DNA from: a virus
Virus record (IMG/VR): IMGVR_UViG_3300034418_004553
Strand: one strand, 5' to 3'
DNA: 62,650 nt
A program made the position numbers and the translations under genes. Numbering within the stretch: position 1 is the first letter of the stretch; the number at the start of each line of letters is the position of its first letter. Below, piece by piece: positions 1 to 14,732 of this stretch. Below the pieces are notes generated by a model. That model was not told where the DNA came from and ran no database searches. It saw only the letters and a program-made list of their open reading frames with translations.

Positions 1-127
1 CTGGCTGTATCAGGTCTCTGCATATATCGTTAGCCATCATCTTGTCAACCATTACCTCAATACTGTCTACTTCGTGTTGTAGTAGACATAACTCACCACC
101 AGATATTTCTTTATACTTTTTAGTGTT
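1..127. repeat. Terminal direct repeat, exact copy of 62524..62650 (circular-closure overlap)
   Basis: Bases 1..127 (ctggctgtatcaggtctctg...ctttttagtgtt) read identically at 62524..62650. Confidence 0.95.
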
Positions 128-885: not shown

Positions 886-945
886 TTTGGTATATGGTTT
901 ACATATATATAATTACAGGTTTTAACGTGGATTTACACGAGTAAA

Positions 946-1701
946 CTATAGAAAGTCAACCACTTGCGAGTAATCTACGTTTTCAACCAACTTGTCTATT
1001 GCCTGCTTTTTTAGCTGCGATATACGCACATAAGCACTGTCACCTTTTATGTTTAACTTCTCTGCTATTTGTTTAGCTGAAAGCTTATCACAGTTAAGGC
1101 CAAAGCTGTATTTAATAACATCTGCTTCACGGCTAGATAAATGCTGACTTAGCAAGTTAAGTAAGTACGAACACAAGAGCTCAGGGTTGTATCTTTTGAT
1201 CTTGTCTGGTACTTCAAAACCTATGTTAGCATCATCTAGCATTTTATCTAAGCTTACAAACACAGAGTTGAAAAACATTTCAAGTTGACTCTTATCTGCA
1301 TCGTTCTTACGTATCTCATTAAGCTTGTGCTCGGGTATACGCATCGTGCCTCGATTGATATCTACGGCTCTACGTATACCACCTTTGATACGTTTAGATA
1401 AAAATGACTTGAGCCTTTGCTCTGGATCACTAGCTTCGTATATAGTCTCCCAGTTAATTTTACCAACAGCGATAACTAAGTTCTTGTTACCTTCTTGTAT
1501 CAAGTCATTAATAGTCATTACGCCACTAGCCTGCTGCGTGGTAGAAAACTTACGCGCTAAGTTCTCTGCTAACGGCATGAACAGTAAGATCAGCTCATCG
1601 CGAGTCATTTCGTCCCAAGGCCTACAGAAGTCTGTTCGCCTTGTAAGCTGCTTTATATCTTCTTTGTATCGGATATAGTTTTGTATGTTATAACACTTCA
1701 T
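946..1701 (-). CDS. Sigma-70 family RNA polymerase sigma factor (regions 2-4)
   Basis: DLIQEGNKNLVIAVGKI...RIPEHKLNEI parallels sigma70 DLIQEGNIGLMKAVDKF...RIPVHM (regions 2.2-2.4/3.0). C-terminal LSSREADVIKYSFGL...SAKQIAEKLNI...YVRISQLKKQAIDKL matches region 4 HTH. Confidence 0.85.
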   Translation of the reverse strand: MKCYNIQNYIRYKEDIKQLTRRTDFCRPWDEMTRDELILLFMPLAENLARKFSTTQQASGVMTINDLIQEGNKNLVIAVGKINWETIYEASDPEQRLKSFLSKRIKGGIRRAVDINRGTMRIPEHKLNEIRKNDADKSQLEMFFNSVFVSLDKMLDDANIGFEVPDKIKRYNPELLCSYLLNLLSQHLSSREADVIKYSFGLNCDKLSAKQIAEKLNIKGDSAYVRISQLKKQAIDKLVENVDYSQVVDFL

Positions 1702-1773
1702 TGTCTTCTTTATTGTTTAGATGTGTTAACACGCAAGCTGTTGCACTTAGTGTTATAAAAATTATTAGTAAAT

Positions 1774-2397
1774 TCATAGTTGTTTATTTAAAAGTTCTTT
1801 TTCGCGCTTTAAGTCTTCACACATATGACGATGCACAGTACGAGATGATACACCCAGAACCTCAGAGACGCGTTTTATCGTGATCTTTTGGCCTAAGTCA
1901 TGTATATCTATCATAGCTTGATAAACGTCGTCAGGATGCGTCTTATTTGATCTGCCAATCAACTGACCTACGATACTGAGCTTTTCAGCTTTACTTAGCC
2001 CGCATCCACGTTTAAAAATAACTTTACGCAGTTTATTTTTAGGTGGTCTATCAAGATCAGACATGTATACATCATATACTATTTTGTCTATCATGTTATC
2101 ATTTATAGAGAAGCTAATAAAACCATTTGACTTGTTGCATATTGCATAAGACATTTGTTTAAACTCGTCAGGACCTTTTTCTGGGTTTAAGTACCACAGA
2201 ACAAGCAAGTGCCAATAAAGGCTCTTGTACGTGTTTATTTTAGCTTCGCTTCTAAACAGATCATAATACTCATGCGTACCGTCTTCAAAGAACATCCACT
2301 TATCTGTTTGTACAGTTGGAATGTCGTTAATAGGTAGTCTGGAGGTGATTACGTTATTGCGCCACAACATGTTATAATTACGATCAAACTGTGACAT
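1774..2397 (-). CDS. Hypothetical protein with C-terminal helix-turn-helix
   Basis: 207 aa. C-terminal ITIKRVSEVLGVSSRTVHRHM resembles an HTH. No other motif recognised. Confidence 0.55.
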   Translation of the reverse strand: MSQFDRNYNMLWRNNVITSRLPINDIPTVQTDKWMFFEDGTHEYYDLFRSEAKINTYKSLYWHLLVLWYLNPEKGPDEFKQMSYAICNKSNGFISFSINDNMIDKIVYDVYMSDLDRPPKNKLRKVIFKRGCGLSKAEKLSIVGQLIGRSNKTHPDDVYQAMIDIHDLGQKITIKRVSEVLGVSSRTVHRHMCEDLKREKELLNKQL

Positions 2398-2459
2398 AAG
2401 CCTGTTACTTAGTACTATTAGGGGCTATTGTCACACTGACCGGTTTAAGGGTCGCAAGA

Positions 2460-2478
2460 ATAATTCTTTTAGAATTAT
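2460..2478. promoter_or_regulatory. Perfect 8-bp inverted repeat ATAATTCT-TTT-AGAATTAT (hairpin or operator)
   Basis: Read directly in the 107-nt gap between two minus-strand genes. Confidence 0.3.
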
Positions 2479-2504
2479 CATAATTGGGTATTTTATTAAA
2501 TTCC

Positions 2505-3002
2505 TCAATACGTTTCTTTAGGTCTTTCTTCATATGTTTTTTCGGTTTTTAGGTTTGCGATTATTCTTTTTGCGCCTATGTAATAGTTCCAGTAAGCTTG
2601 CAGGCTACAATCGTCTTTATACTCATCTGGCATACACTGTGGAGGTTGTTCAAATGGCTCATGCGGTATATCAATAGGTGCTGCCCGTAAATGACCGCAC
2701 TTAGTTATAGACAAATGCGTTCTACCATATCTACGTTTGTATTCAGCACCTAATGCCATCATGTGCTCATACAGCCAATCATAATGTAAAGAGTTTTCTC
2801 TTACCCATATTGTTGAAGGGTGGTTGATATGCGCTTTTTTGTAAGGTACATTAACAAAGTCACCATCAACATCTCTATCACCTAGTATATGGTGGGCCGT
2901 GCAAAGCATCTGAGCAGACTCTAAGATCATCTTTACGACGTGCTTATTGTACTGATAATCAGCGGCTTTACGCGGATCTTTATGTAGATAAAATATATTC
3001 AT
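2505..3002 (-). CDS. Conserved-looking hypothetical protein (N-terminus MNIFYLHKDPRKAADYQYNKHVVKMILESAQML)
   Basis: 165-aa ORF abutting the next ORF start. The N-terminal motif looks like a recurrent phage family whose function I cannot name. Confidence 0.6.
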   Translation of the reverse strand: MNIFYLHKDPRKAADYQYNKHVVKMILESAQMLCTAHHILGDRDVDGDFVNVPYKKAHINHPSTIWVRENSLHYDWLYEHMMALGAEYKRRYGRTHLSITKCGHLRAAPIDIPHEPFEQPPQCMPDEYKDDCSLQAYWNYYIGAKRIIANLKTEKTYEERPKETY

Positions 3003-3184
3003 TAGTCTTCTATAGATGTTATACCATTACCTTTAGGACTGTTCATCAACTGCGAGTGCCTATATCTTTCATTACGAAGTTGCATCTCAAGCACTTTAAT
3101 TGTTTCGCTTTGTGTTTCAACTAATCGCTCGTATGCCTCTAATTTATTTTGTAACTCATCCATTGCTCTCTTCAAATTCTTCAA
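3002..3184 (-). CDS. Small coiled-coil protein
   Basis: 60 aa, heptad-like LQNKLEAYERLVETQSETIKVLEMQL. Packed tightly against its neighbours. Confidence 0.5.
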   Translation of the reverse strand: MKNLKRAMDELQNKLEAYERLVETQSETIKVLEMQLRNERYRHSQLMNSPKGNGITSIED

Positions 3185-3365
3185 TTACGTTTTCAATTTG
3201 TTGTGCACGGCTTGCTATTGACTCTGCAACGTCTGCAAAGCCACGTAATGCGCTGATCTCGTACTCTGATAATTCTTCTGCGTCTAAACCATCTTCAAGC
3301 GCGTATAGACAGTCGCGCATGTCCGCTAATGTATTTTCAAAGCGGCAGTAACTCATATTTCCCAT
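3156..3365 (-). CDS. Small acidic protein (YCRFENT motif)
   Basis: 69 aa, strongly acidic C-terminal half (IENVIEEFEESNG). Confidence 0.55.
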   Translation of the reverse strand: MGNMSYCRFENTLADMRDCLYALEDGLDAEELSEYEISALRGFADVAESIASRAQQIENVIEEFEESNG

Positions 3366-3366
3366 T

Positions 3367-3477
3367 TTAATATCTTTTTCTTTTGTTTCTAATTTGTTCT
3401 AATTTATCTAATAGCTTTATAGCTATGTCTACACTGATCTCGTCAGCGTAATATAGGTCGTATATTAATCTTCTCAT
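3367..3477 (-). CDS. Small hypothetical protein (36 aa, below the ORF-track cutoff)
   Basis: Manual translation MRRLIYDLYYADEISVDIAIKLLDKLEQIRNKRKRY. ATGA overlap with the ligase stop. Fills the gap exactly. Confidence 0.4.
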   Translation of the reverse strand: MRRLIYDLYYADEISVDIAIKLLDKLEQIRNKRKRY

Positions 3478-4319
3478 TCGTAGTCGCGTATACATTTAAA
3501 TAGTGGGTGACGGTAGCTACCAGCTTTGGTACGCTCGAAGTATGTGAACGTAGCTGTCTTGCCAACCCAGCCTTGCATAGCTTTAAAGTTGTCTTGTAAG
3601 TACTTGAACTTATCCATGACAGGCATACCAAACTCTACGCCATCAGCATCACGAGCTAGGAACTTACCGATCGTACCTACACGTTTGCCTTTACCTTCAA
3701 CCCAGCCAATAATTTCTGCCTCAGTGTCGTGGAAGTCTTTGAACTTACGTAGGCTGTGTGAACGCTTTTCGTGATACTCAGTATTAAGACGCAGTATTGA
3801 GCCTTCGTAACCTTGAGCAAGATTTCCATGGTGTATAATTTTAGCTTGATCTTCGTTAAACACATCTAACGTTGGTACACGTTTGATGCAGCGGTTTTGC
3901 ATAAGGTTGTATTGCAGCCACTCGCTACGCTTAGCAAACGGTAAGTGCATGCCTTTACCGATTAGATCGTAGCAGTGGAACTGCACAAGTCTAGCTGATT
4001 CAAGCCTGTACTCATCTGTTGGTTTAGTCTTACGCACGCAAGAGATGATCTTTTCGAAGTCATCTTTCAAGTCGTGGTTGTATAGCTCGCCATCGAGTAC
4101 AACTTGCGGGTTAAACTTGAAGAAAGGTTCAAGGTTAAACAAGATGTGATCGATGTTAAGCCATTGCTTACCTGTACGTGACCACGCGGTTACATTGCCG
4201 TTGTCACACTGTATGACACAGCGGACGCCGTCAAGCTTAGGCTGTAAGAATACGCCTTCGCTGTAGTCAATTGGTTTATCGCTGACAGGATATGCCAGCA
4301 TTGGTTTATGTCTTATCAT
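3474..4319 (-). CDS. lig: ATP-dependent DNA ligase
   Basis: Adenylation motif I KLDGVRC, motif IV-like EGSILR, motif V-like LRKFK. 281 aa, the size of minimal phage ligases. Confidence 0.85.
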   Translation of the reverse strand: MIRHKPMLAYPVSDKPIDYSEGVFLQPKLDGVRCVIQCDNGNVTAWSRTGKQWLNIDHILFNLEPFFKFNPQVVLDGELYNHDLKDDFEKIISCVRKTKPTDEYRLESARLVQFHCYDLIGKGMHLPFAKRSEWLQYNLMQNRCIKRVPTLDVFNEDQAKIIHHGNLAQGYEGSILRLNTEYHEKRSHSLRKFKDFHDTEAEIIGWVEGKGKRVGTIGKFLARDADGVEFGMPVMDKFKYLQDNFKAMQGWVGKTATFTYFERTKAGSYRHPLFKCIRDYE

Positions 4320-4357
4320 ATTATTATTATCTGTTAGTATTCGTATTTAGTTCGTAC
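4320..4357 (-). promoter_or_regulatory. Early-region repeat motif, copy a
   Basis: Minus strand GTACGAACTAAATACGAATACTAACAGATAATAATAAT immediately before the ligase ATG. The embedded TAA is the stop of ORF 4347..4766. Confidence 0.6.
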
Positions 4358-4766
4358 ATGTGTCTCGCTCTGTTTCGCTACAGTCGCAGTTGTCGCATAA
4401 AAACTCTTCAGTCTCGACCTGTTCAGGTGCGTACTTCTTCAGTAACATGTCTGGTGTACCTACAAATACACATCGCTCTTCTTCCCACGACGCTACTTTG
4501 AATACACTGATCCATGGCTCGGATTTGCCATGACACTGCCACACATAGTACATATACTCTATGTCGCAGTGTACTATATCAAGAGCTTCGACTTCCCAGC
4601 CTTCGACTTTACGATACTTAGTAAATGATTCGGCGATCTCTACGCCTAATCCTTCAGGATAACCATCCCAGTGATTATAGAACTGTGCGTGCCATCGATC
4701 TGGGTGTTTGTCAAAAGGTACACCCTCTTCGCGCGTTGCGAACCTTATTGTTGCTCTTGTTGCCAT
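4347..4766 (-). CDS. Hypothetical protein
   Basis: 139-aa ORF ending ...DTCTN-stop inside motif copy a. Confidence 0.6.
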   Translation of the reverse strand: MATRATIRFATREEGVPFDKHPDRWHAQFYNHWDGYPEGLGVEIAESFTKYRKVEGWEVEALDIVHCDIEYMYYVWQCHGKSEPWISVFKVASWEEERCVFVGTPDMLLKKYAPEQVETEEFLCDNCDCSETERDTCTN

Positions 4767-4845
4767 TATTCTTTAAATTTTCTATTTGATTCTATTATTT
4801 GTTCTAGTATTATGTAACCTAGTAAGCCCGCGTATAAGTATTCCA

Positions 4846-5127
4846 TTAGTCTAGTAGTATCATGTATGCGTTAGGATTCTTGATTAGAAACCAGTCCTTG
4901 CCTCTAGTAATGACATCAATGCAGTCATCTAGATCGAACACTGGTATGTTCATAACCATTGCTATTTCAGCACCTTTAATTAAATCATACATACTCAGCT
5001 CAGCAGCATCTAATAATGCTGTTTCACCAGTTAATGGGTTGCGCACTTCGTCACCTAGTTCGTATACGTCACCGTCGAACCAACTCGGTAACATTTCTTC
5101 TGCTTGTTGTTTGTTATTCATCTTCAA
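4846..5127 (-). CDS. Hypothetical protein
   Basis: 93-aa ORF, overlaps the next ORF by 14 nt. Confidence 0.55.
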   Translation of the reverse strand: MKMNNKQQAEEMLPSWFDGDVYELGDEVRNPLTGETALLDAAELSMYDLIKGAEIAMVMNIPVFDLDDCIDVITRGKDWFLIKNPNAYMILLD

Positions 5128-5350
5128 TAATATTTTCTCCTGTCATTAATGTGCTACCGTTGATACTACCAAAATCGACTCCGCCGTAGATTATAAGGTT
5201 ATTGATTTCGCTTATTTTAAGCTCGCTCCAGAATGATGTAGAATCGAGAACTTTAATAGTGCTAGTAACCGTAAATGTGTAATCATCTTGGTTTGCAAGC
5301 AAAGTATCACGTATGTCTTTGTTTAGTCTTTGGTATAATGTTCGTCTCAT
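5114..5350 (-). CDS. Hypothetical protein
   Basis: 78-aa ORF directly preceded by motif copy b. Confidence 0.55.
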   Translation of the reverse strand: MRRTLYQRLNKDIRDTLLANQDDYTFTVTSTIKVLDSTSFWSELKISEINNLIIYGGVDFGSINGSTLMTGENIIEDE

Positions 5351-5388
5351 ATTGATATTATCCGTTAGTATTCGTATTTAGTTTGTAA
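5351..5388 (-). promoter_or_regulatory. Early-region repeat motif, copy b
   Basis: Minus strand TTACAAACTAAATACGAATACTAACGGATAATATCAAT then ATG. Overlaps the 3' acceptor strand of minihelix 1. Confidence 0.6.
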
Positions 5389-5426
5389 GAGCGCAGGAAT
5401 CGAACCTGCACTAACCGTTACTCTTA
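5385..5426 (-). ncRNA. tRNA-like minihelix 1 (7-bp acceptor stem + 10-nt GG linker + T-arm; no D or anticodon arm)
   Basis: Minus strand TAAGAGT-AACGGTTAGT-GCAGG-TTCGATT-CCTGC-GCTCTTA-C. Canonical GGTTCGATTCC T-loop. The 5' acceptor strand lies only 10 nt upstream of the T-stem. Confidence 0.6.
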
Positions 5427-5698
5427 TATAAAGCGAAGACCGAGACATGTCATGTAACCTCGTCAGGTTACCTCGATCAACGCGTAGCGTGTATAGCAAC
5501 ACACCCGTTACATACATAAGCTGTTCACTTTGGGCTCGCTTCTGAACGAAGTTATATCGCCTCCCCAGCTCTATGTATGCCTTGCACCGTCGTGCTTATA
5601 TGTGCAATATGATGACTAATCTGCGAGCAATGTCTTAAGCTTCTCGCGGCGGACCATTACGGTGCTTCCACCAGTCTTGCACATTTAACTAGCTATTG
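5427..5698 (-). ncRNA. ORF-free, hairpin-dense segment upstream of minihelix 1 (candidate structured RNA)
   Basis: No ORF of 60 aa or more on either strand, and visibly more GC-rich than the flanks. Perfect hairpin GTAACCT-GACG-AGGTTAC (5454..5472), ~9-bp pairing of 5511..5520 with 5571..5580, and alternative TGTGCAA/TTGCACA/GTGCAA pairings. Confidence 0.4.
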
Positions 5699-6097
5699 TC
5701 AGACAAATTTGCCATCAATCTTACCTGAGTCGTCTTCGTTGACAAAATCTTCTTCAACTATGTTGAACATATCTTGTAACACGTTATAGATATCCGACTC
5801 AGATATTCCTATATTACTAAAATCAATATTCTCTATTACTACCGTATTACCGTAGTCCATACCAAATTCTACATCTAGATCGTGAGTGTCGACGTTGTGT
5901 ACTATTTCAGTGAATATATCTTGTAGTGCGTCTACTAAATCATCTGCCACTTTCGACTGGATTTTAGGTCTACCTGCATTAGCTAGTTCGTTTACTGCTG
6001 TGTTTAGCTCGCTTTGAGCTTGTCTTAATTCAGAGTCTTTAGTATCTCTGTTGGCTTGTAGTGCTTCCACTTTTGCCTGTAATTGTTCTTTATTCAT
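5699..6097 (-). CDS. Acidic coiled-coil protein
   Basis: 132 aa. Coiled N-terminal half, C-terminal half very D/E-rich (DTHDLDVEFGMDYG...EEDFVNEDDSG). Confidence 0.6.
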   Translation of the reverse strand: MNKEQLQAKVEALQANRDTKDSELRQAQSELNTAVNELANAGRPKIQSKVADDLVDALQDIFTEIVHNVDTHDLDVEFGMDYGNTVVIENIDFSNIGISESDIYNVLQDMFNIVEEDFVNEDDSGKIDGKFV

Positions 6098-6104
6098 GAT
6101 TATA

Positions 6105-6314
6105 TTATTTTAGCATTGTACCATAACCACGACGCCTAGTGAGCTTAGCGATACGATCGGCATCACTGCGTGACATGATTTGTATTGAGTTGCCTGTCTT
6201 GTGGTTGATAAGTGGTGCACAGCCATAACGCTCAACAGTAGAACAGTTGACACACACTTTGAAACCAAGGCGCAGACGGCCTTCAGGGATTATACTATTG
6301 CATTTGCATTTCAT
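6105..6314 (-). CDS. DksA/TraR-like C4 zinc-finger protein
   Basis: 69 aa. CKC-x(17)-CVNC arrangement with IPEGRLRLGFKVCVNC, similar to phage TraR-type zinc fingers. Confidence 0.5.
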   Translation of the reverse strand: MKCKCNSIIPEGRLRLGFKVCVNCSTVERYGCAPLINHKTGNSIQIMSRSDADRIAKLTRRRGYGTMLK

Positions 6315-6352
6315 ATATATATTATCGAAAAGTAATCGTATTTAGTTTGTAA
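6315..6352 (-). promoter_or_regulatory. Early-region repeat motif, copy c
   Basis: Minus strand TTACAAACTAAATACGATTACTTTTCGATAATATATAT then ATG. The embedded TAA is the stop of ORF 6342..6683 (…VHFTN-stop). Confidence 0.6.
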
Positions 6353-6683
6353 AATGTACATCGCGAGTACAGTCTTGAATATGCTCTACAACTTCATCTG
6401 CTTGATTAAAGTCAAGAGTGATATTACCACCTTCTTCAGTCACCGCATAAGTATTAAAGTACTCATTATCTGGGTCGAAGTAATCACAGTTAGGTATGTA
6501 GATTTGAAACTCAAACCGCTGAACTTCGTCGTCGTACCAAGTCGGTCTTTTGATTACACGTGTACAAGTTACTGATATAGAGGCAGTTGCATCATTGCCA
6601 TAGCTTGTATTTTCATATGAGTAACCTGCTTCGGTTAGCTTCATTGCTAGCGCATCATACGCTCTTTGTTCATAACTTGTCAT
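6342..6683 (-). CDS. Hypothetical protein (start trimmed to ATG 6683)
   Basis: The track ORF 6342..6761 has a hydrophobic N-terminal extension overlapping the upstream gene. Internal start MTSYEQRAY leaves only a 14-nt overlap. Confidence 0.55.
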   Translation of the reverse strand: MTSYEQRAYDALAMKLTEAGYSYENTSYGNDATASISVTCTRVIKRPTWYDDEVQRFEFQIYIPNCDYFDPDNEYFNTYAVTEEGGNITLDFNQADEVVEHIQDCTRDVHFTN

Positions 6684-6921
6684 AGTAGTTTTCTTGAAAT
6701 AAGTTAATAATATGCCTACCAGATCGAGTATGGAAACCATAGCTATGAGTAAACATGCCACTGATTGGCTTGTTTTCGAGTACTAATTGTAGTACTTCCC
6801 ATGGTGTACACTCGATCTCATAAGCGGTTGCTTTTGCTGCGTCTGTTAATGTTGCACAGCAGTGTCTTGGTTGAGAGTCTAACTCTTCAACGATATAGTT
6901 TTCCACTTCTTGTTCTGTCAT
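6670..6921 (-). CDS. Hypothetical protein
   Basis: 83-aa ORF in the tightly packed series. Confidence 0.55.
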   Translation of the reverse strand: MTEQEVENYIVEELDSQPRHCCATLTDAAKATAYEIECTPWEVLQLVLENKPISGMFTHSYGFHTRSGRHIINLFQENYYDKL

Positions 6922-6925
6922 AGTA

Positions 6926-7126
6926 TTAAATTAAAATTAAGTCATCAATATAGTCAGGTTCTAGGCCGAACTCACAGGATACGTAGTCTTCTACATCCCA
7001 TACTGTTAGCTCGCCTGACGCTAGACCTTGCATTACATAGTCTCTTGCTTCAGATACTATGTGCTCTGCTGTTTCAGGTGATATACTATCGCGCTTGATT
7101 AGCACGTCTTTGATTCTATATTTCAT
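6926..7126 (-). CDS. Small acidic protein
   Basis: 66 aa, D/E-rich. Confidence 0.55.
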   Translation of the reverse strand: MKYRIKDVLIKRDSISPETAEHIVSEARDYVMQGLASGELTVWDVEDYVSCEFGLEPDYIDDLILI

Positions 7127-7256
7127 TTGCTACATAATTTTCTGCTTCTTCAAGCGTTGTACATTGAGGTACACTGTCATAAGTGCCGTCAGTATACCAT
7201 ATTTTGTTAAGTTCTGGAGCGTAACCGTGTCGCTCTAATCCTACTATTTTTTTCAT
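7116..7256 (-). CDS. Small hypothetical protein (46 aa, below the track cutoff)
   Basis: Manual translation MKKIVGLERHGYAPELNKIWYTDGTYDSVPQCTTLEEAENYVANEI. ATGA overlap with the upstream stop. Confidence 0.4.
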   Translation of the reverse strand: MKKIVGLERHGYAPELNKIWYTDGTYDSVPQCTTLEEAENYVANEI

Positions 7257-7471
7257 TCTTCTAATTCTATTTGTAGTGTTTCACATAACCACTCGTCTTC
7301 GAACCATAGAATATCATTAAGTTGAGTTTCTGTTAATCCATCAGGATACAAATCTTCTATTAGATATTCAAAGTGCTCAGACTTGTTGTTTTCTATAATC
7401 AGTCGCTTTGTTTCTTTTGCACCTGCCCAAGCCTCAAAGCGATTTAGTTTTAAGTGTTGTATTACTTTCAT
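7253..7471 (-). CDS. Small acidic protein
   Basis: 72 aa ending ...WFEDEWLCETLQIELEE. Confidence 0.55.
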   Translation of the reverse strand: MKVIQHLKLNRFEAWAGAKETKRLIIENNKSEHFEYLIEDLYPDGLTETQLNDILWFEDEWLCETLQIELEE

Positions 7472-7483
7472 TTTACTGCTTGA

Positions 7484-7633
7484 TTATTCATGACACATCC
7501 ACTCTATTGAGCCAAGGCTGTAGCCTTTGCCGATTAAGAAGCCTTCAAGCGCTTCGTGAACTTCTGGCATTTCTGGTGGTAGCACATACGTGTCTACCTC
7601 TGCTCTTTCAAAATTTAATACTGTTATTTTCAT
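7484..7633 (-). CDS. Small hypothetical protein (49 aa)
   Basis: Manual translation MKITVLNFERAEVDTYVLPPEMPEVHEALEGFLIGKGYSLGSIEWMCHE. TAATG junction with the upstream ORF. Confidence 0.4.
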   Translation of the reverse strand: MKITVLNFERAEVDTYVLPPEMPEVHEALEGFLIGKGYSLGSIEWMCHE

Positions 7634-7806
7634 TATTTCTCTAATATATAGGTGAAACCTTTATAACCGAACCAGTGGGAAACACCATCTGACTCACCAT
7701 AGTTAATACAACCGAAATTATTCGGTAAATCTCCAATACAGTATGGCTTATAAACTGCCATTCCTATCTGTATTTTATTATTTTTTAAGAATTTAATTGT
7801 TTTCAT
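7633..7806 (-). CDS. Small hypothetical protein (57 aa)
   Basis: Manual translation MKTIKFLKNNKIQIGMAVYKPYCIGDLPNNFGCINYGESDGVSHWFGYKGFTYILEK. Preceded directly by motif copy d. Confidence 0.45.
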   Translation of the reverse strand: MKTIKFLKNNKIQIGMAVYKPYCIGDLPNNFGCINYGESDGVSHWFGYKGFTYILEK

Positions 7807-7844
7807 ATTATTATTATCTATTGTGTTCCGTATTTAGTTTGTTA
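7807..7844 (-). promoter_or_regulatory. Early-region repeat motif, copy d
   Basis: Minus strand TAACAAACTAAATACGGAACACAATAGATAATAATAAT then ATG. The embedded TAA stops ORF 7834..7962 (…DLTN-stop). Confidence 0.6.
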
Positions 7845-7962
7845 AATCTGACGCTACATTAACAAGTAGCATTATCATAGCGATACCAAATGTACCAATG
7901 TTCAAAGCAAGTACTGCTTTCATAGTAATCTCTGCGATTACAAAGTGATTGAATTTTCTCAT
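7834..7962 (-). CDS. Small membrane protein (42 aa, one TM)
   Basis: Manual translation MRKFNHFVIAEITMKAVLALNIGTFGIAMIMLLVNVASDLTN. Confidence 0.4.
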   Translation of the reverse strand: MRKFNHFVIAEITMKAVLALNIGTFGIAMIMLLVNVASDLTN

Positions 7963-7968
7963 ATTATA

Positions 7969-8283
7969 TTATTTTAGTAGTTTCATAAGTGCATTGACAA
8001 CGTCATTAGCGTTTGAAGTGTAATCAACGCCTAAGGATAGTGCATTGCTGTAACAGTCATCGCACTCGTCTTGCCACTCGACAAACTGCCAATAGCCAAA
8101 CATAGTTGATTCAAGTGCTGTGCTACGCACTGAGTAGTCACTGATGTTGTAAGTGATACTGATTTCACTGTCACCAATCAGAGTTAAATCATGATTTGGT
8201 AAGTGATGCTTGAGTAATTGATGTATAGCGTTACGCTGTAGTTTTACTTGAGCTCGTAGCTCTTTATTGAATATCATTGCCAT
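7969..8283 (-). CDS. Hypothetical protein
   Basis: 104-aa ORF directly preceded by motif copy e. Confidence 0.55.
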   Translation of the reverse strand: MAMIFNKELRAQVKLQRNAIHQLLKHHLPNHDLTLIGDSEISITYNISDYSVRSTALESTMFGYWQFVEWQDECDDCYSNALSLGVDYTSNANDVVNALMKLLK

Positions 8284-8321
8284 ATTATTATTATCTATAA
8301 GTTATCGTATTTTGTTTGTAG
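8284..8321 (-). promoter_or_regulatory. Early-region repeat motif, copy e (TAA mutated to AAA)
   Basis: Minus strand CTACAAACAAAATACGATAACTTATAGATAATAATAAT then ATG. The upstream ORF reads through the motif (…TTNKIR-stop). Confidence 0.55.
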
Positions 8322-8436
8322 TATTAGGTCTCACCATTGCCACCTCTTCAAACTCTTCACGAGTGATAAGATTCATCATTAGTGCTAAGTAGTACTTAGT
8401 TACATCTCGCTTAGTTATTTTGTTAATTACTTTCAT
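8302..8436 (-). CDS. Small hypothetical protein (44 aa)
   Basis: Manual translation MKVINKITKRDVTKYYLALMMNLITREEFEEVAMVRPNTTNKIR. Confidence 0.4.
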   Translation of the reverse strand: MKVINKITKRDVTKYYLALMMNLITREEFEEVAMVRPNTTNKIR

Positions 8437-8451
8437 ATTATTTTTAGTTTA

Positions 8452-8495
8452 GTAGTAGCTTGCGAATCGAACGCAACTCGGCACCATGACTACTA
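8452..8495 (-). ncRNA. tRNA-like minihelix 2 (same architecture as 5385..5426)
   Basis: Minus strand TAGTAGT-CATGGTGCCGAG-TTGCG-TTCGATT-CGCAA-GCTACTA-C. Both stems differ in sequence from copy 1 but stay complementary. Same T-loop, U7-G66 wobble, discriminator C and trailing AAACTAAA. Confidence 0.6.
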
Positions 8496-8560
8496 TGTAA
8501 GTGTTCATATTTGATATACCAGTAAACACTAAACTAACTGGACTATATGTTGAAGAGTAG

Positions 8561-8815
8561 TTATGACACTACTGCGTCAGTTTCACGCAACACTTTTGGT
8601 ATATTGTTACTAGCAGTGTACGACTTATACTTTGCCCAACATGGCATTGCTTCTAAAGCTGACTGCATAAGAGTGAATGCTTTGTCGTGATTGTAAGTAA
8701 CTGTGTTACCATTCTTGAATGTTACTGTTATTGTAGCGCCTTTGCCTACAAGTGATTGACGTAAAACGAAACGCTTGCTAGTTAGAGTGTTAGTCACTGC
8801 ATTTGAATTTGACAT
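8561..8815 (-). CDS. Hypothetical protein
   Basis: 84-aa ORF. Confidence 0.55.
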   Translation of the reverse strand: MSNSNAVTNTLTSKRFVLRQSLVGKGATITVTFKNGNTVTYNHDKAFTLMQSALEAMPCWAKYKSYTASNNIPKVLRETDAVVS

Positions 8816-8842
8816 GTTATATATATTTTTAAGTTATTAGTT

Positions 8843-8880
8843 ATATTTATTATCTGTTGCTTGTCGTATTTAGTTTGTAA
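8843..8880 (-). promoter_or_regulatory. Early-region repeat motif, copy f
   Basis: Minus strand TTACAAACTAAATACGACAAGCAACAGATAATAAATAT. Here the ATG (8815) lies a further ~27 nt downstream. Confidence 0.5.
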
Positions 8881-8958
8881 AAGTAGTAAGTTTGTTTATG
8901 TATTAGTTTTAGTAGAGTAGTACTCCGCCGCGCTCGCAAGTGAACGACATAAATTATT

Positions 8959-9066
8959 TTACAACAACTCACTGAGTGAACAAGTTAGCATTATGTAAAG
9001 AGTAAATACTGTAGCGAAAAGAATTGTATAAATTATTTCTTGAAGTAGTAATTTTAGAATACGCAT
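8959..9066 (-). CDS. Small hydrophobic protein (35 aa), first ORF of the leftward arm
   Basis: Manual translation MRILKLLLQEIIYTILFATVFTLYIMLTCSLSELL. Confidence 0.35.
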   Translation of the reverse strand: MRILKLLLQEIIYTILFATVFTLYIMLTCSLSELL

Positions 9067-9089
9067 GTAGAATATTTTTGTTTTGTTAT

Positions 9090-9127
9090 ATATATATTAT
9101 CGAAGCGTTGTCGTACTTACTATGCAA
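9090..9127 (-). promoter_or_regulatory. Early-region repeat motif, copy g (degenerate, outermost)
   Basis: Minus strand TTGCATAGTAAGTACGACAACGCTTCGATAATATATAT. It keeps the TACGA and CGATAAT blocks and sits at the head of the leftward arm. Confidence 0.4.
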
Positions 9128-9189
9128 AAATCGAAACTGAGGCAAAGCCAAAGGCGGGGCCCGGTAAACTATATGCACTTTTCCTGGCA

Positions 9190-9213
9190 GGGGGAGGGGC
9201 CGGGGGAGGGGGG
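9190..9213 (+). other. Canonical G-quadruplex motif G5-A-G4-CC-G5-A-G6
   Basis: Read directly: gggggaggggccgggggagggggg. Four G-tracts of 4 or more with loops of 1, 2 and 1 nt, inside a GC-rich island (about 9140..9230) of an AT-rich genome. Confidence 0.8.
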
Positions 9214-9353
9214 CTACATTTCCCTCCAATATTTATAATATCCGAAAAAAGTATGACACTAGGTAGTTAATAGATATTAGTAACAGGCATATGTCACACT
9301 TTTTAAATAGCGAAGTAAGTGTGTAACTATAAAGAGTATAAAGAAGAAAAGCA

Positions 9354-9746
9354 ATGGCAACTACAACAGCACAAGTAATTATATCAAGCACGAACTTACT
9401 TTCTAGTTCACTTAGCATTAATAACACACGTACATTAAAGCAGTCTGACGGAACAGATGTGGATGAGTCTACAGGTCTAGCAGCAACTAAGAACGGTGGT
9501 ACTAGTATATATACTTTGTATTTAGCGTCAGCTTACGGTAACAACGGTGCCGCGAAAGTGTACATTAAGAATAACGATACTACGTTTGCTAACTTTGTTA
9601 CGATCACGATAGGCTCACAAACTCTTGGTAGATTATACGGCGGTGATTGGGCGCTTATACCTTGGGATGCTACAAACGATTTCAAAGCTACAAACAACAA
9701 CAGCGGTACTACTATTGAGCACATGCTGTTACATGAAGGAGCATAA
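9354..9746 (+). CDS. Hypothetical protein, first ORF of the late arm
   Basis: 130-aa ORF, T/S/N/G-rich. Confidence 0.6.
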   Translation: MATTTAQVIISSTNLLSSSLSINNTRTLKQSDGTDVDESTGLAATKNGGTSIYTLYLASAYGNNGAAKVYIKNNDTTFANFVTITIGSQTLGRLYGGDWALIPWDATNDFKATNNNSGTTIEHMLLHEGA

Positions 9747-9780
9747 TACTATATATATATAACATACAACATAATTAATT

Positions 9781-10242
9781 ATGGCATACAAAATGAAGAA
9801 TCCATCTGCTATGAAGATGGCGAAAAAAGCAGGTTGTCCTAGGACTGCTATGAAAATGAAAGCTGAGGAAGCTGCGGCTATGAAGATGAAGAAAGCTGCA
9901 ATGAAGCTTAAAGAGGCATCTGCTATGAAAATGAAGAAGTCTGCTATGAAGGCTGAAGGTGATCCTAAAAAAGAGATGACTCAAGCTGAAAAGGACGCTG
10001 CTATTGCTAACGCTATGCCAGCTGCTAAAAAAGAAGCGCTAAGCGATGAGACAGTTGCGGGTATGAAATCGTACTTTGGTGGAGTTAACGCTGATATTGA
10101 TGCAGTGAAAGCAAAGATGAGAGAGCTTAAGAGCAAGACGGAAAGATCTGGAGTAAGTCCAAAGAACCAGGCTAAATTCGACGCAGACCTAAAAGCAGCG
10201 GAGCGCGCAGCTAAAGCTAGATACCCACAAGTATTTAGATAA
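9781..10242 (+). CDS. Lys/Met-rich repeat protein (M-A-Y-K-M-K N-terminus)
   Basis: 153 aa. The N-terminal 57 aa hold 7 (A)MK(M/L/A)K units, and the C-terminal half is basic and helical. Confidence 0.65.
   Translation: MAYKMKNPSAMKMAKKAGCPRTAMKMKAEEAAAMKMKKAAMKLKEASAMKMKKSAMKAEGDPKKEMTQAEKDAAIANAMPAAKKEALSDETVAGMKSYFGGVNADIDAVKAKMRELKSKTERSGVSPKNQAKFDADLKAAERAAKARYPQVFR
9787..9951 (+). repeat. In-frame tandem (S/A)AMKMK(K) peptide repeats
   Basis: gctatgaa(g/a)atg recurs at irregular 18-30 nt spacing: YKMK, SAMKMAKK, TAMKMKAEE, AAMKMKK, AAMKLKE, SAMKMKK, SAMKAEG. Confidence 0.8.
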
Positions 10243-10294
10243 ACAACGTAAAGGATTTACCTTTACACCATATATAACCTAAAACCCAATAAAT

Positions 10295-10585
10295 ATGACC
10301 TATTTATACTACAAGACGTCGTCTACGACGCACACTACAAAGCCAAGTAAGCAAGAAATCGCAGAATGGACACACATGTCTGCTAAATCTAACTGGCGAA
10401 TCACCCAATTACCTAACGGATACTATCAAACAGAGGTTTCGAACCCACAAGATCAAGAAAGTTGGCATTCTGTTACCCGAAGAGAAACGCTCGAAGGTGC
10501 AGAATCTGCCATTGACGGTAGCATCGACTACTTTTCTAAAAAATTAGAGGCTACAAAAGGCCCGAAAGTTGTAAAGACTTTCTAA
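10295..10585 (+). CDS. Hypothetical protein
   Basis: 96-aa ORF. Confidence 0.55.
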   Translation: MTYLYYKTSSTTHTTKPSKQEIAEWTHMSAKSNWRITQLPNGYYQTEVSNPQDQESWHSVTRRETLEGAESAIDGSIDYFSKKLEATKGPKVVKTF

Positions 10586-10597
10586 AAAATAAAAATC

Positions 10598-10888
10598 ATG
10601 GCATTTAAAATGAAGGCATTCTCTGGTTTTAAATCAAACGGAGATCCAAAGAAAAAATCTACGGCTACAGCTGGTACAATTGTTGGTGATATCGACAATA
10701 AGCTTGGAGACGCATTTGCAAGTGGAGACATGAGCGCAGCAAGAAAAGCTTATAGAGAAGTAAAAAGCGATATCAAAAGCGTTCTAGCTGGCGGAGGTAA
10801 AGAAGCGGAAAGTCTACGTGATCTTATAAACGTTGATAAGTACAAAAACTTCAACTCAGTAAAAAACGCTTACAAAAGCGATCAATAA
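10598..10888 (+). CDS. Small Lys-rich protein (MAFKMK N-terminus)
   Basis: 96 aa. The start ATGGCATTTAAAATGAA is identical to that of ORF 53292. Confidence 0.6.
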   Translation: MAFKMKAFSGFKSNGDPKKKSTATAGTIVGDIDNKLGDAFASGDMSAARKAYREVKSDIKSVLAGGGKEAESLRDLINVDKYKNFNSVKNAYKSDQ

Positions 10889-10923
10889 TCCAAACAAACC
10901 AATATAATTTAATTTAATACAAT

Positions 10924-12495
10924 ATGGAATACAACTTACCTAGTGAGTTGATCAAGGAACTAGACTTTGGTCATACCGCTAAAAGTAAAATCATTGCCGG
11001 CGTAGATAAGCTGGCACAAGCCGTGAAAAGCACACTTGGCGCATCGGGTAAATGCGTCATCTATGAGGATGCTCGCGGCAGACCGGTGATCACAAAAGAC
11101 GGAGTAACCGTGGCTCAAAGCGTAGTCTTATATGATCCGGTTGAAAACATTGGCGCTACATTAATTAAAGAAGCAGCCAACAACACAGTGAAAGAAGCAG
11201 GTGACGGTACTACTACAGCTACTGTCCTTGCTGAAGCACTATTAAAAGAAGTAAATAAAGATGAATACTCTAAAGAATCTATACGAGAAATCAAAGCAGG
11301 TATTAGCTCAGGCCTGGACAAAGTTGTGCAACATCTTGAAGGAAGGGCTATTGAAGTTGAAGGGAGCATGCTTAGCGCTGTTAGCGCGATTAGTTGCAAC
11401 AATGATCAAGCCCTTGGAAACATTATTGCAGAAGCTTACGAGCAAGTAGGCAAAGACGGTGTCGTACTTATGGAGGAAGGTGACACCGATGAAACGCATG
11501 TAGAGTTAGTTGACGGGGTGCAGTTTGACTGTGGGCTTACGTCACCGCACTTCGTCACTAACACTGACAAACATCTAGCAGAGCTAGATAACCCATACGT
11601 GTTAATTGTATCTAGCGAAATACCAAACGTGCGTAAGATACAAAATGTACTAGAGCATGTTATTAAAAAAGGACGTTCTTTACTTATTATAGCACCTGTA
11701 GCATCTGGCGTTAAGTCTGCGCTTATGATGAACAAGGTTAAAGGTAATATAAAAGTTAATATTATTGACTTACCTGGCTTTGGTCCTACAAAGAAAGATG
11801 CTACGGAAGATCTAGCTATCATGACGGGTGCTACTGTTATTAACGAAGAGCTGGGTGATGACTTAGACCTTATAGGTGTAGAACACTTAGGAGAAGTTGA
11901 GTACGCCGTAACTAGTGATACTAATACAGTGATTACTCTTGAGGAGATGACAGAAGAGATCAACGAACGTATTGAGCAGGTGTCTAAGAAAGTTGAAGAT
12001 GCTAAAGACGGCTTTATGAAAAAGAAGCTACAAGAGCGCTTAGCTATGTTATCAGGCTCTGTAGGTATTATTAAAGTTGGTGCTGCATCTAAGGTTGAGC
12101 TCAAAGAAAAGAAAGACAGAGTTGAAGATGCTATATACGCAACTAAAGCCGCGCTTAAAGAAGGTATCGTACCTGGTGGCGGATCTGCATTATACTGGGC
12201 GTCTCAAAAAATTTCTCCCACTAACGTGGGTGAGGAGATCCTCCTTAAATCTATTAGAGCTCCGTTCTACACTATACTAGACAACGCTGGTATTTTAAGC
12301 GCTGAAGTTATTAATAAAGAATATCACGGCGTAAACGTTATCACTGGTGAGTGTGTGGACATGATTGAAGCTGGCGTAGTAGATCCAGTGTTAGTTACTA
12401 AGTCTGCACTCAAGAACGCTTGCTCAGTGGTGTCAACTATTATTTCGGCTGATTGTGTAATCTCAAATGCTAGAGCAGATGAAAGCAATAAATGA
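10924..12495 (+). CDS. groEL: GroEL-like chaperonin (Cpn60)
   Basis: 523 aa. Hallmark GDGTTTATVLA ATP-binding motif, ITKDGVTVA, VPGGG, and C-terminal AGVVDPVLVTKSAL. Confidence 0.9.
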   Translation: MEYNLPSELIKELDFGHTAKSKIIAGVDKLAQAVKSTLGASGKCVIYEDARGRPVITKDGVTVAQSVVLYDPVENIGATLIKEAANNTVKEAGDGTTTATVLAEALLKEVNKDEYSKESIREIKAGISSGLDKVVQHLEGRAIEVEGSMLSAVSAISCNNDQALGNIIAEAYEQVGKDGVVLMEEGDTDETHVELVDGVQFDCGLTSPHFVTNTDKHLAELDNPYVLIVSSEIPNVRKIQNVLEHVIKKGRSLLIIAPVASGVKSALMMNKVKGNIKVNIIDLPGFGPTKKDATEDLAIMTGATVINEELGDDLDLIGVEHLGEVEYAVTSDTNTVITLEEMTEEINERIEQVSKKVEDAKDGFMKKKLQERLAMLSGSVGIIKVGAASKVELKEKKDRVEDAIYATKAALKEGIVPGGGSALYWASQKISPTNVGEEILLKSIRAPFYTILDNAGILSAEVINKEYHGVNVITGECVDMIEAGVVDPVLVTKSALKNACSVVSTIISADCVISNARADESNK

Positions 12496-12736
12496 TTACA
12501 TAGTAGTTAACGTAGAGAAAGAAGGTCCCAAAAAAGTTGGTGGCCTTCTTCTTACTGAAGAGCTAGACGAAAGCAATAGATATATTAAAGCTACGATTAT
12601 CTCTACAGGTAATCTTGTTGAAGGCTTAAATGATGGTGATGTAATTTACTACGATAAGCACGCTGGTCATGGTATTTCATGGCAAGATACAGTGTATCAA
12701 GTAATTCGTGGTAGAGATGTTGTACTCGTAGAGTAA
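12479..12736 (+). CDS. groES: GroES-like co-chaperonin (Cpn10)
   Basis: MKAINDYIVVNVEKEGPKKVGGLLLTEE...DGDVIYYDKHAG fits the GroES pattern. The start is taken at the second ATG (the track ORF starts at 12467) and overlaps the groEL end. Confidence 0.75.
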   Translation: MKAINDYIVVNVEKEGPKKVGGLLLTEELDESNRYIKATIISTGNLVEGLNDGDVIYYDKHAGHGISWQDTVYQVIRGRDVVLVE

Positions 12737-12836
12737 CTACTTCACTAAACATGTGATAAGGATAATAGACCTAAACCTTAAATCACAAACTTTAAACGGT
12801 AAATCAATAAACATTAACATTTAAAATTTTTCAAAC

Positions 12837-13169: not shown

Positions 13170-13172
13170 CAC

Positions 13173-13613: not shown

Positions 13614-13614
13614 C

Positions 13615-14731: not shown

Positions 14732-14732
14732 A

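Follow-up and report, generated by a model that had tools for sequence, protein, structure and literature searches.

Between positions 4320 and 9127 of the virus record IMGVR_UViG_3300034418_004553, which was analyzed over its whole length of 62,650 nucleotides (the window), a 38-nt motif recurs seven times in front of minus-strand genes. This raises the question of what the repeats do and, if they direct transcription, which factor reads them. The original prediction offered three readings: repeated promoters with ACAAAC as -35-like and GATAAT as -10-like box, a signal for RNA processing or translational coupling, and recombination boundaries between small-gene cassettes. The comparisons described below indicate that the repeats are almost certainly a phage-specific promoter common, nearly letter for letter, to hundreds of uncultured marine Flavobacteriaceae phages, and that the reader of this promoter is probably phage-encoded.

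Seven copies in a leftward gene block

A search for ACAAACTAAATACGA-N9-GATAAT with up to three mismatches returned six matches (4326-4355, 5357-5386, 6321-6350, 7813-7842, 8290-8319, and 8849-8878), with none expected from 100 dinucleotide shuffles. When an A was added (ACAAACTAAATACGA-N9-GATAATA) and up to 5/22 mismatches were allowed, a search of both strands of the ~62.5-kb genome gave exactly seven matches, the relaxed search adding only the degenerate copy g at 9125. The minus strand carries all seven copies, within positions 4320-9127, and each precedes an ORF. The coordinates originally given for the seven copies are thereby confirmed, as is their bias to one strand.

Copy g (9090..9127), the first copy of the leftward block, reads GCATAGTAAGTACGA-N9-GATAATA with 4/22 mismatches, and its predicted start at ~9089 is followed by a 23-nt leader and ORF 8959-9066. 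Copy f (8843..8880) is a perfect match with a predicted start at ~8842 and a 27-nt A/T-rich leader in front of ORF 8561-8815, which encodes an 84-aa protein conserved at 68 related loci. As had been noted, the ATG lies ~27 nt (f) and 23 nt (g) past the 38-nt motif, which corresponds to 33 and 29 nt after GATAAT. In copies a-e, the ATG follows the motif directly with a gap of exactly 6 nt after GATAAT, also as described, and the predicted start is the A of the ATG. Copies e (8284..8321; start 8283, ORF 7969-8283) and d (7807..7844; start 7806, ORF 7633-7806) each have one mismatch, TAA to AAA and ACGG for ACGA, respectively. Copies c (6315..6352; start 6314) and b (5351..5388; start 5350, ORF 5114-5350) are perfect matches, the former preceding the gene for a 69-aa Cys-rich protein, a probable zinc-ribbon, that is present at 44 related loci. 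Copy a (4320..4357; ACGAACTAAATACGA-N9-GATAAT-AATAAT) has its predicted start at 4319, the first base of a DNA ligase gene (3474-4319).

The motif contains a TAA that was proposed to serve as stop codon of three upstream genes, all ending in Thr-Asn. This proved correct for ORF 4347-4766 (...CTN; TAA of copy a at 4349-4347), ORF 6342-6761 (...FTN; copy c), and ORF 7834-7962 (...LTN; copy d). In copy e, which carries AAA instead, the upstream ORF 8302-8436 indeed continues to ...TTNKIR and stops at a TAA 9 nt beyond. The reported overlap with a minihelix was also found, as the 5' end of copy b overlaps the 3' strand of a tRNA-like acceptor/T-arm helix (GCAGGTTCGATTCCTGC-GCTCTTA-C), at which no tRNA was called by ARAGORN.

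Conservation in related phages

More than 120 IMG/VR stretches contain the 18-base core of the motif. In related viral contigs totalling about 1 Mb, 461 copies were counted, compared with 1-3 in shuffles, and 38% of the phage copies are perfect. All copies share a single strand in 116 of 119 loci, and an ORF starts within 90 nt of 90% of the copies but of only 41% of random positions. In 176 unique copies, even the flanks that had not been selected for are nearly invariant, with T/C-A-C-A upstream in 145-176 and an A after GATAAT in 175. The contigs bearing the motif are relatives of this phage, with identities of 77-83% for TerL, up to 85% for the ligase, and up to 78% for a sigma factor (see below); in a set of sigma-anchored loci, the identity of the latter ranges from 49 to 89%. 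Lineage variants show small changes in the upstream block and in the -10 box (GATATTA, GATAATT, GATAAAW). No copy was detected at up to five mismatches in MW202828.1 and phi18:3. The original prediction had made its case depend on relatives, and in these, which make up a large phage clade, it is conserved in sequence, in strand, and in its place before ORFs. As judged from these comparisons, the motif occurs almost exclusively in the sigma-bearing clade and is a clade-wide family signature rather than a local oddity.

Anatomy of the probable promoter and its predicted transcription start

The distance between GATAAT and the ATG has a sharp peak at 6 nt, which was found in 94 of 449 clade copies compared with one copy at 5 nt and none at 7 nt, while the remaining four fifths have variable distances of 8-50 nt. 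In 351 leadered copies, the seventh base after GATAAT is nevertheless a purine (A or G) in 98%, with a T directly in front of it in 72%. Transcription probably starts at this seventh base, a position deduced from sequence statistics alone. Relative to the deduced start site, the invariant GATAAT has the properties of a sigma-70-type -10 element, which are an A at -11, a T at -7, and an end 6-8 nt before a purine start. Because GATAAT occupies the -10 position, is followed by a purine 7 nt on, and has the ATG exactly there in 94 copies, we infer that the motif is very probably a promoter. This first reading is further supported by the conservation in the clade, the placement on one strand before ORFs, and the T at -1 next to the purine at +1.

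Two details of this reading need correction. Transcripts had been suggested to be nearly leaderless, and the start does adjoin the ATG; in copies a-e and the 94 of 449 clade copies, about one fifth, the mRNAs would however be fully leaderless, with their 5' end at the A of the ATG. The assignment of ACAAAC as a -35-like box is right in its distance of 18 bp upstream of the -10 box, but the element bears no likeness to TTGACA. No TTGACA-like hexamer was found 16-19 bp upstream of the -10 box, and CAAACT in the 17-bp register matches TTGACA at 2/6 positions.

Numbered from the deduced start, ttACAAAC extends from -38 to -31, TAAATACGA from -30 to -22, and GATAATA from -12 to -6. The most persistent piece of TAAATACGA is ACGA (-25 to -22), and the 9-nt spacer is weakly conserved, often with T-G at its end. 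The TAAATACGA block is conserved as strongly as the boxes that it separates, and this is not accounted for by a simple two-box model.

Cassette boundaries and RNA structure

The repeats overlap upstream stop codons, adjoin start codons, and mark the beginning of homology blocks between relatives, all of which would also suit a function mainly at the RNA or DNA level, be it RNA processing, translational coupling, or primarily recombination in the exchange of cassettes. Upstream ORFs (n = 416 copies) stop on the first TAA in 63 cases and on the one that is part of GATAAT in 48; in 45, the end lies 4-5 nt upstream. Among 84 long homology blocks (HSPs), 27 have their start no more than 8 nt from that of a motif compared with 2.3% expected, and none ends in a motif. 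As homology blocks start at the motif, it also marks cassette boundaries between relatives, and the third reading is supported as a secondary consequence. The expectation that breakpoints between relatives would coincide with the motif thus holds for 5' boundaries and fails for 3' boundaries, and the stem-loop that the proposed analogy to promoter-stem-loops (PeSLs) implies is lacking at the repeats.

As the main function, however, such an RNA- or DNA-level role is very improbable. RNA folded in 56-nt windows around each copy shows no structure (MFE 0 to -3.8 kcal/mol, z -0.7 to +1.2), inverted repeats are absent from the motif, and no terminator-like hairpin was found on the minus strand between 4300 and 9100. 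The only upstream hairpin, at copy b, is the tRNA-like T arm. Unstructured RNA, together with an ATG distance that varies in four fifths of the copies while the purine stays fixed 7 nt after GATAAT, speaks against the second reading, RNA processing or translational coupling. Recombination alone, in turn, does not explain the base-by-base conservation of a non-palindromic 23-nt sequence in one orientation among phages whose proteins are only 50% identical, and recombinase-type inverted or direct sub-repeats are absent.

Which factor may read the probable promoter

A candidate reader is encoded by the phage itself. The minus-strand ORF 946..1701 encodes a sigma-70-family sigma factor of 251 aa with region 2, a 3.0-like RIPEH segment, and region 4; it clears the sigma-70 family threshold, aligns to SigA/RpoD regions 2 and 3.0, and is absent from all 50,697 deposited phages. 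The gene has the same orientation as the seven copies and lies downstream of them all, and in 43 of 43 loci the sigma gene is downstream of the motif array. Some relatives have a motif copy ~570 nt upstream of the sigma gene, which presumably belongs to the transcription unit of that copy. This sigma factor is the most likely reader, although the assignment is tentative and falls somewhat short of even chances. A phage-encoded reader is favored by the near restriction of the motif to the sigma-bearing clade, by its rarity in bacterial chromosomes, by the small lineage-specific changes in upstream block and -10 box, and by the lack of an RNA polymerase domain in the ORFs scanned (all >200 aa and part of the smaller ones). 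The sigma gene itself, however, lies downstream of these promoters, so that a first round of transcription would need another trigger. The classical scheme, with host sigma early and phage sigma late, would moreover assign the phage sigma to the structural block, which counts against it as reader. Since a sigma factor alone normally needs no conserved block from -30 to -22, a second DNA-binding protein may take part.

The start-up problem would be solved if the host polymerase alone read the promoter, either through its primary sigma working off-consensus or through an unrecognised alternative sigma or activator, as the array heads the leftward block with the sigma gene downstream. On this view, the repeats would be genuine immediate-early promoters and the phage sigma would act on the structural block, which has no host-type promoters and hence needs some phage factor. 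Exact 23-nt copies are indeed found before ordinary host genes on long contigs of three Flavobacteriaceae/Flavobacteriales MAGs. These are a TerB-domain gene beside parAB and, at loci orthologous between two MAGs, a gene for a signal-peptide protein; no phage homologue was found for any of them. Such copies would be expected with a host factor as reader and count against the phage sigma. The -10 box of the T7 A1 promoter is GATACT. A T7 A1 promoter fragment is transcribed in vitro by purified Cellulophaga polymerase (holoenzyme) (10.1101/2020.03.07.982082), so the host sigma may tolerate GATAAT. Reading by the host alone is nevertheless unlikely. The mismatch to the Bacteroidota -33/-7 consensus was recognized correctly in the original prediction: GATAATAT has only 2/6 of the specified bases of TAnnTTTG (A-11 and T-7), there is no TTG/TTTG element at -33, and none of the motif copies carries this consensus, which is clearly visible in the phi14:2 promoters that were run as controls. 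In the whole genome, TTG-N17-TAnnTTTG occurs at chance level (7 observed vs 6.3 expected), and it does not precede the sigma gene in any relative. The sigma-less sister phage MW202828.1, by contrast, uses a different repeat plus ordinary host-type promoters and is enriched in the host consensus (16 observed vs 5.3 expected). Furthermore, if a host regulon had this consensus, numerous copies would be expected in the thousands of searched Flavobacteriaceae genomes, but only 3-4 exact chromosomal copies were found among 185,579 bacterial species genomes, and the drift of the -10 box between phage lineages is unexpected for a conserved host sigma.

An injected polymerase or specificity factor carried in the virion, N4-like or crAss-like, would also remove the start-up problem. 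It could be a 3081-aa protein (37535-46780) or the packaged sigma, and it would fit the long, strictly conserved recognition sequence, which is typical of phage-encoded polymerases, and the crAss-like layout, with GroEL heading the structural block, a giant protein at the end, and a muzzle-protein domain in a 2617-aa protein. This explanation is improbable, as -10 box and start site are arranged as in sigma-70-type initiation, the hairpin of N4 promoters is absent, and comparisons with Pfam, PHROG, and PDB sequences gave no polymerase match for the 3081-aa protein. Its sole DxDxD is missing even from an 80%-identical homologue, and its conserved features are a C-terminal domain and two motifs, HExxH and the HAD-like DFDDT. 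Fold prediction covered the C-terminal domain, which is predicted to be all-helical (pLDDT 68.6) with no fold match; the N-terminal 2000 residues are poorly conserved. In addition, the early genes of the crAss-like phage phi14:2, which are read by a virion polymerase, have no common motif (10.1101/2020.03.07.982082).

Proposed mechanism

The best explanation for the whole, with about even chances of being right, combines a lineage-specific phage promoter, the phage sigma as its likely reader, and cassette crossover points. Host core RNA polymerase with a sigma-70-type factor would melt the DNA at GATAAT and begin transcription at the purine that lies 7 nt further on. For copies a-e, this purine would be the A of the ATG, leading to leaderless mRNAs, and transcripts from copies f and g would have a 23-27-nt A/T-rich leader without a Shine-Dalgarno sequence. 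Each small gene cassette would carry one promoter copy, in a packing so tight that the preceding gene often stops on one of two TAA triplets within the promoter. The phage sigma, encoded downstream of the array, would reinforce its own synthesis, and this loop could be started by weak recognition through the host sigma or by a virion-carried protein. The near-identical copies would double as crossover points at which promoter-plus-gene cassettes are swapped between relatives.

Comparison with known systems

The crAss-like Cellulophaga phage phi14:2 resembles the present phage in host family, genome layout, and lack of Shine-Dalgarno sequences. Its middle promoters are canonical Bacteroidota promoters (TTG-N17-TAnnTTTGTA) that depend on the polymerase of its Flavobacteriaceae host (10.1101/2020.03.07.982082), and the motif described here is neither of this host type nor comparable to the motif-less early genes. 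An N4-type system (DNA hairpin with a 5-7-bp stem and a 3-nt loop, plus giant virion polymerase) was not found. Unlike the contiguous ~23-bp block of T7-type promoters (-17 to +6), conservation spans -38 to -6 with a variable gap, and the RNA polymerase domain (RNA_pol) that a T7-like polymerase gene would encode was not found in the scanned ORFs (all >200 aa and part of the smaller ones). TAAATACGA has some likeness to TAATACGA of the T7 promoter, which was taken as coincidence.

Middle promoters of Bacillus phage SPO1 are read by gp28 and late promoters of T4 by gp55. Like these systems, the present one has a phage-specific, non-host consensus repeated before a block of phage genes and a phage sigma-70-family factor, with no phage polymerase detected in the ORFs scanned. 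In contrast to them, the promoters are located upstream of the sigma gene at the head of a presumed early block with no host-type early set before it, the -10 box closely resembles TATAAT, conservation includes a 16-nt upstream block, many of the transcripts are predicted to be leaderless, and the pairing of sigma and motif is drawn from sequence alone. T4 middle promoters combine a MotA box centred at -30 with a sigma-70 -10 box. The geometry here is similar in that a good -10 box is combined with a conserved block at about -37 to -22 and a TTGACA-like -35 box is lacking, but T4 middle promoters follow host-type early promoters, none of which are evident here. A Pfam scan of 15 early-region proteins, which covered part of the small ORFs, gave no match to MotA or AsiA, and such proteins diverge fast.

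The PeSLs of T4-type phages are composite elements in which a stem-loop terminator is followed by a host sigma-70 early promoter (PMC2839356, PMC4122927). The repeats described here have no stem-loop terminator, and their promoter is not host-type. They share with PeSLs the near-identical promoter copies flanking small, variable genes of unknown function, and the coincidence of repeats with boundaries of gene gain, loss, and replacement, in this case the 5' boundaries only.

Conservation of the motif in a phage clade

On the evidence of sequence comparison, the 38-nt motif is a real, strongly conserved and previously undescribed promoter consensus of an abundant clade of uncultured flavobacterial phages. 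Six good copies and a degenerate seventh lie on the minus strand between 4320 and 9127, where the original prediction had placed them, and the distances to the following ATG were also correct. The predicted copy number and strand bias hold genome-wide, as a scan with 22 specified bases, including the invariant A after GATAAT, and ≤5 mismatches returned these seven sites alone from both strands and none from shuffled sequences. The first copies after the operator-like repeat described below have no systematic excess of degeneracy over later ones, and a literature search on the 9-mer gave nothing relevant.

The 18-base core is present in >120 stretches on IMG/VR contigs of 40-72 kb. These contigs are kin of the window phage and have early and replication genes in common with it. 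With four mismatches allowed, 461 copies occur in ~1 Mb of related loci, compared with 1-3 in shuffled sequence. The unspecified flanking bases are almost invariant in 176 unique copies, so that the true motif is (T/C)ACAAACTAAATACGA-N9-GATAATA, with slight drift between lineages that includes the -10 box. The motif is confined to the clade bearing the sigma-70-family protein encoded at 946-1701 on the minus strand, and is absent from the relatives MW202828.1 and phi18:3. This sigma protein has >8000 homologues, mostly in marine metagenomes, many of them from Tara Oceans, and none among deposited phages.

Predicted start site and leaderless transcripts

The arrangement of the copies is that of promoters. 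All copies occupy a single strand in 116 of 119 loci, and in the 43 sigma-anchored loci every copy is on the strand of the sigma gene. Of the copies, 90% have the start of an ORF of ≥30 codons within the next 90 nt downstream, compared with 41% of random positions. The distance from GATAAT to ATG peaks sharply at 6 nt (94 copies; one at 5 nt, none at 7 nt) and ranges from 8 to 50 nt in the remaining copies. Of the 351 off-peak copies, 98% have a purine (A or G) as the seventh base after GATAAT, and 72% have T directly before this base. A pyrimidine followed by a purine is the usual signature of a bacterial start site. This signature would place GATAAT at -12 to -7 and makes the seventh base the probable start site.

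In the 6-nt class, the predicted start coincides with the A of the ATG, and the promoter consensus thus predicts leaderless transcripts, i.e. mRNAs without any leader. This class would imply that leaderless mRNAs are used heavily in the Bacteroidota, a phylum in which <4% of mRNAs carry very short leaders (PMC7366714) and leaderless translation is rare. Another proposed function, an RNA processing or translational-coupling signal, is opposed by the variable distance to the ATG and by the unstructured RNA; folding of all seven copies yielded no structured element.

Architecture of the proposed promoter

The most persistent pieces in the lineage variants are ttACA (-38 to -34), ACGA (-25 to -22) and (G/T)ATAAT. 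Some two helical turns separate ACGA from the predicted start downstream, and one turn separates it from the -10 box, a location at which sigma-70 factors do not normally recognize bases. A further protein may take part, or sigma may make an unusual contact. Two known promoter types do not fit. The motif is 4 bp short of the spacing of FliA/sigma-28 promoters (TAAA-N15-GCCGATAA), and FliA is not known from Bacteroidota. The GG and GC dinucleotides of the sigma-54 -24/-12 geometry are missing from the motif.

One relative (L149, 348-12400) carries two promoter classes in series, six AAAACGA-N9-TATAATA copies followed by five copies of TTGCAGA..ACGn-N9-GATAATA. A second sigma was not found in the 20 kb examined, which contain a single sigma gene. 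The series hints at two temporal classes with an ACGA-N9 -10 core in common.

Recognition of the proposed promoter

The usual host sigma is contradicted as the reader of the motif. As read from its genome, the Cellulophaga phage phi14:2 has host-dependent promoters of the textbook Bacteroidota type (TTG-N17-TAnnTTTGTA), and the motif has A-11 and T-7 alone in common with the Bacteroidota consensus. Matches to this consensus occur at chance level in the window (7 observed vs 6.3 expected) and are threefold enriched in the sigma-less MW202828.1, e.g. upstream of GroEL. The evident transcription proteins of the phage are the 251-aa sigma-70-family factor, with regions 2, 3.0-like and 4, and a 207-aa HTH protein, with no others; an RNA polymerase domain was not found in the ORFs scanned (all of >200 aa and some of the shorter ones). 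The best candidate for the reader is the phage sigma, favoured by the confinement of the motif to the sigma-bearing clade, its near-absence from bacterial chromosomes and its drift between lineages. The alternative is that the host polymerase reads the motif unaided, in line with three Flavobacteriaceae/Flavobacteriales MAGs in which exact copies precede ordinary host genes and with the published in vitro transcription of the T7 A1 promoter by Cellulophaga polymerase.

With the phage sigma as reader, sigma and motif would form a self-amplifying sigma-promoter loop. The sigma gene always lies downstream of the motif array, and some relatives have a copy ~570 nt upstream of it. No host-type promoter was found in front of sigma in any of 35 relatives, so a sigma-dependent array would need a separate first trigger. 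A late promoter read by sigma was also considered. AGTGTAACTATA occurs at chance level, A/T-rich leaders and nothing else lie upstream of GroEL and TerL, and the search did not define a late promoter.

The motif is nearly absent from bacterial chromosomes, and chance matches in other phyla are without the TACA extension. Exact 23-nt copies occur on three chromosomal contigs (1.39 Mb, 812 kb and 195 kb) of Flavobacteriales/Flavobacteriaceae MAGs, at L187 327-353, L188 150-176 (minus strand) and L200 4278-4304. One copy precedes the gene of a TerB-domain protein adjoining parA/parB; the others precede a signal-peptide (secreted) protein at orthologous loci in two MAGs. The genes behind these copies have no homologue in the phage loci. 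These rare host copies raise the question whether regulatory DNA has been exchanged or co-opted between phage and host. That they are infection sensors, which remain silent until the phage sigma appears and then switch on a host response, seems improbable. If true, it would, with the self-amplifying sigma loop and leaderless translation, make a phage-host promoter arms race visible in sequence.

Other conserved elements

An inverted repeat of 44-46 nt, GTGACAnnnGCC-N20-GGCnnnTGTCAC, is a second element present clade-wide, with 155 occurrences in related loci. The copy at 2391-2434 overlaps the HTH gene (1774-2397) at its start codon, and sigma comes after this gene; the copy at ~9252-9297 lies at the head of the divergent early/structural region, where relatives have it 10-200 nt upstream of the first promoter copy. 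The repeat resembles an operator, possibly that of the HTH protein. In the interval between this repeat and the first promoter copy there is a tract rich in C and in G (9130-9250, minus strand; GGAGGGAAATGTAGCCCCCCTCCCCCGGCCCCTCCCCCTGCC...), with a conserved TTATAAATATTGGnGGG-like box before it. Relatives have similar tracts at this place, and the tract may serve as a packaging site or replication origin or encode a small RNA.

Upstream of promoter copy b, a relatively G+C-rich non-coding stretch of ~310 nt (5389-5698, minus strand) folds better than shuffled sequences (-101.6 kcal/mol, z -2.6) and ends in a tRNA-like acceptor/T-arm minihelix, whose predicted overlap with the motif was borne out. 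Neither ARAGORN nor Rfam returned anything for this stretch. In several relatives (L003, L017, L026, L064), too, T-arm-like sequences (GGTTCGATTCC) lie directly against the promoter, and the 10-mer GTGTATAGCA, akin to GTGTTGCTATACAC of 5389-5698, is over-represented in the clade.

The sole clean intergenic match to the Bacteroidota consensus, the host-type promoter TTTGCAAAT-N-TATCTTTGTA, lies in the stretch 54524-54665 on the plus strand. Behind it are ~100 nt that end in a G+C-rich hairpin and a T run (54633-54665). The stretch, which has no match in Rfam, is a candidate small RNA that would be made by the unmodified host polymerase. A short hairpin at 10243-10294 (plus strand) precedes a conserved 96-aa gene (10295-10585) and has homologous sites in ~45 loci. 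Its position is kept and its sequence is not (e.g. GTAAAGG-ATTTA-CCTTTAC, or TAGGGAAAnnCCCTA); TACC...TTAACCnAAAACC and the ATG come next, and the hairpin may be a late regulatory or processing element. The early region of MW202828.1 (L002, 43000-60850) contains 16 copies of a perfect palindrome, GTGTCGTTAACGACAC, at sites 739 to 15090, often with TAA before and ATG 16-25 nt after it. Candidate functions for this palindrome are hairpin promoter, terminator and operator.

Genome layout and host

Both ends of the window have 127 identical bases in common, indicating a complete, circularly permuted phage genome of ~62.5 kb. Its G+C content is 39%. A leftward block on the minus strand runs from ~9130 down through position 1 and on to ~54,700. 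It begins with many small ORFs of unknown function, followed by genes for DNA ligase, pyrimidine-dimer glycosylase, the HTH protein, the sigma factor, ERF and a PDDEXK nuclease, and further encodes a primase-helicase, thymidylate synthase, MazG and ribonucleotide reductase. The rightward block (9354-54521) encodes GroEL, terminase, portal, a 2617-aa protein with a crAss muzzle domain, a 3081-aa protein and the 737-aa protein described below. ARAGORN found no tRNA in the window, and Rfam gave no match in 1-12000 or 5330-5730.

The host is placed in the Bacteroidota, most likely in the Flavobacteriaceae. This is supported by the motif copies in chromosomes, by the lack of visible Shine-Dalgarno sequences and by a C-terminal type IX secretion sorting domain (Por_Secre_tail, E 2.6e-10) on a 737-aa protein (48465-50678, plus strand), which is unusual in a phage and a marker of a Bacteroidota host. 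By terminase, the nearest deposited relative is MW202828.1, a spring-water metagenome phage (65% identity), followed by Flavobacterium, Cellulophaga, Maribacter and Tenacibaculum phages (32-46%); no deposited phage is near-identical to the window.

The 3081-aa protein (37535-46780, plus strand) has no match in Pfam, PHROG or PDB, and is not detectably similar to the giant proteins that MW202828.1 and phi18:3 encode at this position. Its single DxDxD motif (at 1147) is not conserved. Homologues of 2200-4000 aa contain HExxH near residue 1046 and a HAD-like DFDDT near 2130, and have a C-terminal domain of ~700 aa in common. Structure modelling, which covered this conserved domain, predicted an all-helical fold with no match, whereas the N-terminal 2000 aa are variable. 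A virion polymerase is thus unsupported, and the protein looks like a polyvalent, injected cargo protein.

Cassette exchange and comparison with known systems

Genes and promoters are interleaved with no spacers or terminators between them. Among 416 copies, the upstream ORF ends in or just before the promoter in 156, at the first TAA (63), at the TAA of GATAAT (48) or 4-5 nt upstream (45). The TAA stop within the motif that had been described for upstream ORFs of the window (...CTN, ...FTN, ...LTN) and the read-through of the upstream ORF at copy e were both found again. Recombination boundaries at the motif had also been proposed. When the window was compared with its relatives, 27 of 84 long homology blocks started ≤8 nt from the motif start (2.3% expected) and none ended in the motif, so the coincidence is confined to block starts. 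Promoter-plus-gene cassettes are thus the unit of exchange.

Knowledge of the promoter makes the transcription programme of the clade readable from sequence and allows early-gene cassettes to be delimited in metagenomes. In Bacteroidota, where standard sigma-70 promoters do not work, a compact promoter of 38 bp paired with its own sigma would offer a candidate orthogonal switch for gene expression. The motif belongs to the already known class of phage-specific promoters. It resembles the PeSL, the promoter-stem-loop cassettes of T4-type phages (PMC2839356), in the exchange of promoter-plus-gene cassettes, but differs from them in that it is without a stem-loop.
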